From positions 1 to 64,000 of the forward strand of contig CDROCS010001556.1 of the NCBI GenBank assembly GCA_977020255.1: DNA of 64,000 nt, in the 5' to 3' direction. This document shows positions 15,306 through 18,118 of the stretch, piece after piece. Every line of letters begins with the position of its first letter. The first letter of the stretch is position 1. This stretch comes from Obrimoposthia wandeli. Taxonomy: Eukaryota. The position numbers and the translations under genes are program-made. The notes beneath the pieces are model-generated. The model saw nothing but the letters and a program-made list of their open reading frames with translations. It was not told the DNA's origin and ran no database searches.

Positions 15306-18118
15306 TCAATATATATTAAACTTTGGTTGGGTCCACTCCAGATCTATTGGCATATTGTTCTGTCTGAGATACATCAGATAAAATGGTGTGTGGCCCGTCG
15401 CCTCTCGAACTGAATTCCTGTAAGCATATAAACATGAAGGTAAATATTTATCCCAATCCTCTTGCTTGTCTGAGCAATAGGATTGTACCATCATACATAA
15501 AGTTTTATTAAACCTTTCTACTATACCGTCAGTTTGTGGGTGATATGATGAAATTTGTAACTTCATGATTCCGAATATCTTTGATACTGCTTTTATTACT
15601 TATCCAGTGAAATTCTTGCCTTGATCTGTTAATAACTTTCTAGGCACTCCATATCGAAATATTATCTCTTCCACTAAAATCTGCGCTATTGTTTCAGCCT
15701 TCTGGTTTTGCATGGAATATGCTTCTACCCATCTCGTCATGTAATCCGTAAATACTAGGACGTAATTATTTCCTTTACTTGATTCTCTCAATGGTCCTAA
15801 TATATCCATCGCTGTGAATTCCATTGGTCCCAAAGGAACTGGTACCGGTTTCAGTGGAACTTTATTACGAGTTCCTGTATCCTTTCTGGTTAAACATACT
15901 TTACATTGTGTACACCATTGTTTTATCTTGTCTTCCATACCATCCCAATGGTATTTCTCATTGATTCTCGATATTGTCTTTCGTCCTGACAGATGTCCTC
16001 CCAGTGTTCTATCGTGGTACTGGATCATCACTGCCGCTCTCAATGACTTCGGAATTACTACTACTATCTTTCCGACATTGTTGACAATATGCAAAGTTCC
16101 TTCTTTTATCGACTATTTTCTCGTCATTTCATCATTTAGGTCTCCTTTCACTAACAGTTCTTTCAATAGACTCAATTCTTCATCTTGCTTCTGTTCCTTG
16201 ATGATCTCTTTGTCTGTATTACAAGTATTTTAGCAAAATCGTTAGTAGATTTGCTTCTATTCCTTGTCGTTGACTTCATCTTGACCTTCTTCTTGGATTA
16301 TGTTTCCTTTTTCATCCACATTGGCCAATCTCGACAAACAATCTGCGTTGCCATTCGACTTTCCGGTTCTATATCGGATGTCTAGTTAAAACTCGGCTAA
16401 TTTCAGAAACCATATGTTTAGTCTGCTCATCTCGTCTCTATGTTTATACAAGAACTGTAGTGGTTTGTGATCTGTATACAGGAATACATTTTGTCCTAGC
16501 AAGTAGTGTCTGTACTGTCTACACGAATATACTATTGCTAGACATCCTTTTTAATAACAGAGAGTTTCCTCTTTCTACTCTATTTAACCCTCTACTCGCA
16601 TATGTGATGACGTGTTCTTTTCCTTCCTCATCCTTTTGCACTAATACTGCTCCTACAGCATAGTTACTTGCATCTGTCATTAGTATGAATTGTCGATTTA
16701 TATCCTTAAACGCTAATATCGGTGCTTTTATCAGTTTTTCCTTTAGGTCTTCGAACGCTTGTTGTGCTTCTTTTACCCATATGAATTTTTCATCTTTCCT
16801 CGTCAACTTTCTCAATGGTGTTGCTTTATCGGAAAAATGTTCAACAAATTGCCTGTAATAGTTCCCAAGACCTAAAAAACTCTGTATTTCCTTAACAGTC
16901 TTTGGAGCTAGATGTGCTTTTACTTTCTCGATCTTTGCTAGATCAGATCAGATGCCTTCTTTTGATACTATATGTTGATAATTCGTTCTTTTTTACACTT
17001 ATGGCATTTGATTACGTCTTTACCATCCTTTTTTATAGCAAAAAGTCGCTTTTTTGCCAATTTTTAAAGTCTTGGATCATCGAACGTTACTTCTCGCATT
17101 ACTTCGAATATATCTTCAATTCGACTATTTGTTATTACTCTGCCTATTATTAGAGCTGATTCTCCTTCTGGAATCTCGTCGCTGTTGTCGAAATCGGTTG
17201 CTTTCCCCATTTGAATTTCTGGTACGTTTGAAGTTTTTAGTTTCAAAAGGAATGGACAATTTGGTGCTTTTCTTTTATGACGTTTCATTGGTTTATCATT
17301 ATTTTCCCAATTTCTAAACTTTACTCTACACCATACGCATCGTACTACTCTCTCAGAACCAGAATCTTTTGTCGTGTCTCCGTTTAACATTTGTAAACCT
17401 GTTCTCGCCATTTTGCGTGACATTTCTTTTGAATAGTACGGTTCTAGTGACTTTCGTCTATTTATCTCGATTCTAAAAAGATCTGTTTCTGATAGATTCA
17501 CATATGTTATTTTCCTCCTCGTCATAGCTTGTGGTCCGTTGTCTACTCATTTGTAGTGAAGTATCGACTTTACTAACGCTTCCTGTTTCCTGTTTCGGTA
17601 CGGATTTCCCATACAAAACCTAGTGTATAGTTCCTTTTCGACTATAGGTCCTCTCAACATTTTTATCTCTCTCACTGAACTGTCGTTCTTAAAACTCTTG
17701 TTGTTTGGTAATATTATTATTCCTTCAAACATTCGTATTACGTCCATCCCAATCATGACTGGACAACCACTATCTGTGAATATTCTTGCATTTATCTGTA
17801 ATGCTCTTCCATCAATAGTTAATTTACATTTCAGTGTTCCTTCTGATACTACATCTGTTCCATTTACGTTGACAAATGTTTGTTTCCCCAAGACATACGT
17901 CTTCTAGTTCTTTTCATGAAAAAAATTTCTTTACTTACTACTGATACTGCAGATCCGGTATCAACTTCGGCAAGATGTTATCTTCTGTTCATTGTTACTG
18001 CTTTTTGTGGTGGAGCATTCGGATTCTCATTAGATATCCTAGACTTCAGAATTCTTCTGAAATTATCTTTTTTTATTTTTTTCCTATGCCTGTGGATTCT
18101 CATTATAGTTCTCTCTAG
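15306..18118 (-). mobile_element. Decayed Ty3/Gypsy LTR retrotransposon internal region (gag end, protease, BIR insert, RT thumb, RNase H, integrase)
   Basis: EVDTGSAVSVVS protease site (~17930-17970); HIVSKEGI..QSFLGLGNYYRQF (RT thumb, ~16850-16980); FILMTDASNYAVGAVL (RNase H); HDRTLGGH...CTQC zinc finger; MDILGPL, LLTDQG, VERFNKTL (integrase DDE); multiple stops and frameshifts; no LTRs recognised. Confidence 0.93.
17247..17468 (-). CDS. BIR (baculovirus IAP repeat) zinc-binding domain inside the Gypsy pol region
   Basis: ORF 17064-17525: EINRRKS...MARTGL...VRCVWCRVKFRNWENNDKPMKRHKRKAPNCPFL has the exact C-x2-C-x16-H-x6-C BIR signature plus the LAxxG, WExxDxP and PxCPF motifs. Confidence 0.85.

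Follow-up and report, generated by a model that had tools for sequence, protein, structure and literature searches.

An IAP-like BIR segment beside the protease of a decayed Gypsy-type fragment in Obrimoposthia wandeli

How does a BIR domain come to lie inside a Gypsy-type retroelement that has no RT core: as a replacement for that core, as a chance insertion into a single copy, or as cargo of the element's family? The window, by which we mean the whole 64,000-nucleotide stretch that was analyzed, carries on its minus strand a Gypsy-derived fragment in which a protease is followed by an IAP-like segment, the RT thumb, RNase H, and integrase. The initial annotation had read this order from a protease motif (DTGS), a BIR, and a thumb motif (HIVSKEG), and both the motifs and Pfam bear it out. 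The parts of the fragment and its immediate neighbors are as follows.

15310..18120, minus strand: whole Gypsy-derived fragment, ~2.8 kb, LTRs absent, with several stops and frameshifts and truncated at both ends.
18121..18230, strand not applicable: what we take, from a terminal motif at 18121, to be a hAT-type transposon end; it lies against the fragment's 5' edge but does not belong to the element, and depth drops there.
17720..18010, minus strand: retropepsin-like aspartic protease (DTGS ... IGMD), recognized with clade protease profiles and broken by a stop and a frameshift.
16989..17585, minus strand: IAP-like segment, colinear with aa 99-297 of the BIR+RING protein P0116 at 30% identity.
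17247..17465, minus strand: BIR domain 1 (BIR1), identified by Pfam, phmmer against PDB, a model with Foldseek, and a residue check.
16989..17108, minus strand: probable second, degenerate BIR start (R..TF, D.I.C..C), cut at the junction; the alternative is a shortened Pol linker.
16970..16980, minus strand: breakpoint where the IAP-like and RT thumb frames join out of register; the fingers and palm of RT are absent.
16324..16974, minus strand: RT thumb/connection and RNase H (PF17919, E 5e-23; PF17917, E 1e-13), with stops and a frameshift near 16550.
15321..16112, minus strand: integrase, H2C2 and rve core (PF17921, E 2e-18; PF00665, E 6e-11), with one internal stop and the C-terminal part missing.
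14860..15300, strand not applicable: ~430-bp dispersed repeat adjoining the 3' edge of the fragment, with an inverted partner at 19270-19680.

The order PR-RT-RH-IN, with a Gypsy-type RNase H and an H2C2/rve integrase, marks the fragment as Ty3/Gypsy, RT being represented by its thumb only. The window copy has neither the YxDD RT core nor the flanking LTRs of an autonomous copy, and a repeat search of the 64-kb window found no LTRs and no direct repeat flanking the fragment. Depth rises in a step at each edge (15310 and 18120) and stays high in between, tblastn matches of relatives stop at ~15321, and a loose end at 15323 indicates that other copies run on past the 3' edge. The two copies of the 430-bp repeat, inverted and with 75% column identity, bracket the fragment; no target-site duplication of the pair was seen by eye, and they are either foldback-type arms that carried the fragment or two independent insertions. 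The window copy is dead and cannot itself make the IAP protein, a condition that says nothing on function.

The kinship of the element was read from its integrase, which shares 55 to 64% identity with 11 clade proteins, with identity falling to 47% or less thereafter among the 120 listed; a profile scan added further metagenome loci at 54 to 63%. A quick tree was built from 39 rows, namely the window plus 19 loci (of 43) and 19 proteins (of 120) picked to span the range; in it, the window integrase lies inside an 18-row clade with an SH-aLRT of 99, grouping with giant single-ORF elements, exemplified by L007 and L008, whose env stands in frame between gag and protease. The thumb, which starts with HIVSKEG at 16974, and the RNase H are ~50% identical to those of clade relatives. 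Likewise, the window protease matches profiles of clade proteases with 42.9 to 45.6 bits (E ~1e-15); its DTGS is found at 17962-17951, and its second half, to GMD near 17745, is in another frame. The closest integrase relative (62 to 64%), P0153 (MGL4337186.1), is labelled as a Turicibacter sp. MAG protein and is likely eukaryotic DNA in a bacterial bin. Giant elements with open frames were encountered in metagenome contigs (L001, L002, L004, L005, L007, L008, and L009), and neither the window integrase alone nor P0116 yielded any locus in viral contigs.

The complete C-x2-C-x16-H-x6-C BIR of the initial annotation was confirmed by Pfam (PF00653, E 7.5e-14); its 52.5 bits exceed the curated cut-off of 22.9, and all four zinc ligands are present at 17339-17256. 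All 60 PDB sequence matches listed by phmmer are IAP/BIR chains, and a search of ESM Atlas returned generic IAP clusters only. An AlphaFold model of the region reached a pLDDT of 65 to 85 over residues 21-100, and all of its listed PDB Foldseek matches are BIR-protein structures, with the proviso that the model leans toward the BIR fold because the alignment supplied consisted of IAPs. In the accessible text of PMC8917759, Type II BIRs, which bind IBMs and caspases, are defined by E/Q76 together with W/H80, and Type I BIRs by V/L80. With R76 and K80, BIR1 of the decayed window copy falls outside the Type II class and outside classical Type I as so defined; judged by eye, the common variant of the position-80 codon in the public runs is non-aromatic as well. 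Given that E/Q76 and W/H80 are lacking, BIR1 is therefore predicted not to bind caspases or IBM peptides via the Type II groove.

Similarity to IAPs extends on both sides of BIR1. The initial annotation had the BIR pass directly into the thumb, and the thumb does begin at 16974, but the IAP-like stretch (~17585-16989) is longer than the BIR and probably includes a degenerate second BIR start. An exhaustive phmmer search gave 1,477 matches at E <= 0.001, and among the best 150, which were listed, P0116 (UniParc UPI000602CAF0, 483 aa, BIR and RING) alone aligns over 200 colinear residues; BLASTP scored this match at 73.9 bits over ~200 colinear residues, and tblastn agrees. The part before BIR1 is specific to P0116 (score 54 versus 37 for the next best of the 150 IAP matches; 0 of 500 shuffles), and the part after it is weakly similar to P0116 (score 45; 10 of 500 shuffles), with four other IAPs scoring higher. 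A BIR-only tree, in the spirit of the phylogeny that the initial annotation proposed, drew on 446 BIRs and had 46 rows (the window BIR, the 30 best, and 15 chosen at random); it left the window BIR unplaced, not joined to P0116.

The post-BIR end deserves separate consideration. Its last 40 residues score a weak 2.2 bits with the BIR HMM, and hhalign gives E 0.041 against an IAP alignment and E 0.7 against a linker alignment. Ungapped linker profiles match at aa 243 and 271, two positions that had been picked out by eye beforehand; these matches stand in the correct order and compare with 45 and 3 of 1000 shuffles, respectively. On these weak matches, this end is probably the start of a second, degenerate BIR. 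The string KCHKC was also considered as the K.C motif of RT and was rejected, the local scores being 18 to 26 with 10 relatives versus 44 to 56 with the best IAPs. A Pfam search found no RING in the fragment; as in P0116, it could lie in the lost part. The N terminus of P0116 was tried as a degenerate protease and rejected, as 510 of 1000 shuffles were as good, and as a MATH domain, for which Pfam gave no match; with the protease profile, none of the 150 listed IAP matches was significant.

Did the BIR replace the RT core, as its description as standing where that core should be implied? RT homology to every RT-bearing clade relative starts abruptly at 16974, in a different frame from the BIR, so that the IAP-like and RT homologies both terminate at one out-of-frame point. 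In intact relatives the pre-RT protease and the thumb are separated by 380 to 390 aa (five of five measured). The common out-of-frame end point, together with this spacing, fits a break and not a replacement, and breakage, not a swap for the BIR, is the likely cause of the missing RT core. Upstream of 16974, a clade protease-to-thumb profile had no significant match, and this includes the "PYR" residues that had been annotated as a linker; as the start of RT, "PYR" was rejected. The annotated lack of a YxDD core in the element holds, since in the 64-kb window Y[ILVM]DD[IL] occurs only at 52852 and nowhere in the fragment. The site at 52852 (YLDD) is part of a second, unrelated decayed Gypsy remnant (51600-52900, minus strand), with ~40% identity to clade RT.

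Conceivably, the BIR is a one-off that entered a single Gypsy copy by insertion or recombination, either as a retrocopy of a host IAP or with some separate repeat that bears an IAP. The segment is similar to P0116, a BIR+RING protein of cellular type, a BIR was found in none of the fetched relatives, and IAP retrocopies are described as common in invertebrates in the accessible parts of PMC13159474 and PMC8917759. However, by eye the edges of the IAP segment show neither a poly-A tail nor a target-site duplication. Moreover, the second half of the protease and the BIR share a frame with one stop in between, and a single frame of 310 codons with two stops runs from that protease half to 16974 with the BIR inside. 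The strand composition of the BIR is also that of the element: the coding-strand A fraction is 0.41 to 0.45 in the BIR region, 0.33 to 0.45 in the rest of the fragment, and 0.27 to 0.32 just outside, one poly-A window (0.54) being the exception in this comparison.

Depth adds to this picture. In four public runs from one sample and one study, matched at 80% likeness and with 43 to 44% of fragment words present, the IAP-like bins reached 0.39 to 0.74 times the depth of the integrase, 0.62 to 0.98 times that of the thumb and RNase H, and 0.55 to 0.80 times that of the protease. In the same four runs of one sample, they exceeded the right flank 17- to 47-fold and the left flank 31- to 354-fold. 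Depth is not copy number, and with short contigs, not one of which covers the whole stretch, it shows that the BIR is as repeated as the element and does not speak to linkage in other copies. Among the loose ends listed (24 of 3,272), those at 17354, 17501, and 17550 lie inside the segment and, read by eye in the element frame, give sense codons of like length; diverged coding copies therefore exist, some of them lacking the stop that separates protease from BIR. Such diverged in-frame variants, together with depth at the level of the element, speak against a one-off, which we regard as very improbable. In other words, the BIR is likely family cargo of the element, and the simplest reading of the frame, the A-rich bias, and the loose ends is shared ancestry of protease and BIR in one ORF. 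As between the distinct BIR-bearing Gypsy family suggested in the initial annotation and the one-off nested insertion that was to refute it, the element frame, the A-rich strand bias, and the element-level depth favor the former.

The same data bear on the possibility that the RT-less form is itself an amplified, nonautonomous subfamily with protease, IAP, RNase H, and integrase, mobilized in trans by intact relatives. The junction bin (16959-17085) has about the depth of its neighbors in all four runs, but a break in one copy between two high-copy segments yields equal depth. The rows listed (24 loose ends out of 3,272 and 15 joints out of 216) include none at 16960-16990; since they also omit the fragment's 5' edge, which is known to exist, absence at the 16974 junction is uninformative. 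The out-of-frame junction argues against selection for a fused product, and we consider such a subfamily quite unlikely.

The anatomy of the clade bears on where the BIR belongs in an intact copy. L007 (97-11205) has a 3703-aa ORF with Gag knuckles, an in-frame fusion glycoprotein, two proteases, RT, RNase H, and integrase, and L008 (2-10279) has a 3426-aa ORF with three proteases and cargo between them; in both, two to three protease copies stand ahead of RT, and the in-frame env matches PF24664 (E 1e-83 and E 5e-94, respectively). L007 further shows ubiquitin (E 1.2e-4) and PF11976 (Ubi2/SUMO-like, E 2.1e-3) matches, both under curated cut-offs and with E 0.5 in a PDB search. ESM Atlas gave no match to its helical region, and no BCL2-like or dUTPase-like region was matched in the L007 stretches tried; the paper that describes these regions in Burro used HHpred. 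Other cargo lies upstream of the pre-RT protease in L008 and P0160. Post-integrase proteases occur in L002, L004, L009, P0154, P0157, P0162, and P0163, and in L002 and L004 they are accompanied by ankyrins. The cargo seen in the clade comprises ankyrin, membrane-anchored ectodomains, a RING ORF (L001), and an RNase_T exonuclease ORF. The ectodomain is found after the integrase in giant clade elements, and a separate downstream ORF matches RNase_T (DEDD) exonucleases in five of the nine loci scanned, L001 having the RING ORF instead.

No BIR was detected in the clade relatives, that is, in 0 of 11 proteins, 0 of 21 ORFs from nine loci, and 0 of 43 loci by tblastn, in mostly partial contigs. The initial annotation had proposed to look for protease-BIR-RT linkage in relatives, and no intact copy with this order was seen in the sequences covered: comparison of the protease-BIR read-through with longer and near-length proteins (the protein searches covered polyproteins up to 2000 aa) gave no relative with both domains, such blanks being weak evidence, and a scan with the protease-BIR protein across metagenome and viral contigs gave no locus.

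Taking these observations together, we give about an even chance to the reading that the locus is the decayed remnant, without LTRs, of a giant Gypsy element of Burro type, from a family that likely carries an in-frame IAP behind a protease upstream of RT, and that the RT core was lost by one internal deletion. The simplest route starts from a protease-BIR-...-RT layout and takes one deletion: the protease tree, in which the window protease groups weakly (78/70) with pre-RT and upstream copies, leans that way, and upstream cargo exists in the clade. Possibly, though, the native slot is downstream of the integrase, and the locus is a chimeric join to the thumb of a nested or tandem copy, or a template switch. 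Proteases after the integrase are common among clade members, and the IAP would then follow such a protease as the ankyrins do in L002 and L004. The window protease also scores highest with the post-integrase class profile, by a trivial margin of 2 bits (45.6 versus 43.7 and 42.9). In the clade, a Y-x-L-R motif at the end of the integrase is found 43 to 52 aa before post-integrase proteases and is absent before all eight pre-integrase proteases; the window has a weak, frameshifted Y-x-L-R match 48 codons before the catalytic D, but this match is not significant, being equalled by 31 of 200 shuffles at that position and by 94 of 200 anywhere. The Burro review, in its accessible text, does not place a BIR between PR and RT (PMC6431247). 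Against a post-integrase slot, the protease tree leans the opposite way, if weakly, two events are needed instead of one, and the linker-profile matches after the BIR would be due to chance. We hold this arrangement to be a serious, if less likely, alternative.

The remainder of the window contains several unrelated features. An ankyrin-repeat gene with a C-terminal C3HC4 RING (19813-19944) occupies 19810-26670 on the minus strand, 2 kb upstream of the BIR fragment and on the same strand. It shows no similarity to the cargo ORFs of the clade, and for this reason and because of intron-like gaps we take it to be a probable intron-containing host gene. A Polinton/Maverick-like region (27360-42150) contains an rve integrase (32957-33532) with an inverted second copy (27361-27938), an A32-type ATPase (31926-32600), a protein-primed PolB in two ORFs (37981-41625), and nested inverted repeats (29272-29854 and 41080-42151). 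Finally, there are two tandem arrays, of 15-nt units at 4800-6100, with long open frames on both strands, and of 112-nt units at 59719-60390.

Under the favored reading of a single internal deletion, the IAP module of intact copies would be part of one long polyprotein, from which the element's own aspartic protease may cut it free. By analogy, the module may then dampen cell death or ubiquitin/NF-kB signalling in host cells that express the element, and keeping those cells alive would keep the element too, as reported for the B-IAP of Burro1 in the accessible part of PMC13465017. Any caspase or IBM activity would have to reside in what the break removed, or on a different surface. A bolder proposal, which we rate as rather unlikely, is that an IAP capture separate from that of Burro1 took place in a lineage of the Burro clade, which placed the IAP between protease and RT and reached high copy, possibly as an RT-less form in trans and possibly outside triclads, with repeated anti-death capture as a general strategy of the clade. 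A second, divergent BIR family in the clade, apparently with a different slot and lacking the Type II groove residues, would allow single and repeated IAP capture to be tested against each other, and likewise whether host benefit is general.

Comparison with known systems puts the locus in context. That BIR is not a standard Gypsy domain, as first annotated, does not make it unprecedented there: Burro1/GYPSM1 and Burro-2 to -4 are giant Gypsy-like LTR elements of planarians, and a BIR is among the domains described for Burro1 in the available text of PMC6431247, while the window integrase groups with Burro-type elements. Burro1 is further reported to have acquired a "B-IAP" with BIR and RING, by which stem cells are protected against caspase-mediated death (PMC13465017, accessible portion). 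Besides a BIR on a Gypsy element, the clade of the window shares with Burro the giant single ORF, Gag CCHC knuckles, an in-frame env ahead of the protease, and ankyrins, and in L007 also a putative ubiquitin/SUMO-like domain matched under the cut-offs; this kinship with Burro1 is judged from described anatomy. In contrast to B-IAP, the window fragment is without a RING, and the BCL2-like and dUTPase-like regions of Burro were not detected in the stretches of L007 that were tried. The slot also differs. The window BIR comes straight after the protease and ahead of the RT thumb, whereas the Burro description, the text of PMC6431247 being the only basis of this comparison, has env flanked by BCL2 and PR, has PR and RT separated by a dUTPase-like region and, in its accessible part, does not put the BIR between those two. 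In the passages covered, which come from outside most subscription papers and Repbase, a BIR situated between protease and RT is nowhere described.

The giant Gypsy elements L001-L009 and P0153-P0163 resemble the window element in their integrase (54 to 64% identity), in belonging to one supported clade, and in having multiple proteases beside cargo, but differ in that their available, mostly partial sequence holds no BIR. These relatives show polyproteins swapping cargo next to duplicated protease domains. Invertebrate BIR+RING IAPs (P0116; XIAP/DIAP-type) and baculoviral IAPs have the same BIR fold and zinc ligands, and in P0116 the pre-BIR part, BIR1, and a degenerate BIR2 are colinear with the window segment. 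The window segment differs from P0116 and cellular IAPs in its identity of only ~30%, R76/K80, the retroelement frame, and the absence of the UBA/RING part. In summary, BIR cargo in giant Gypsy elements is already known and reportedly functional; what may be new here is a protease-adjacent slot upstream of RT, a divergent, non-Type II BIR, and a BIR family distinct from the fetched relatives.
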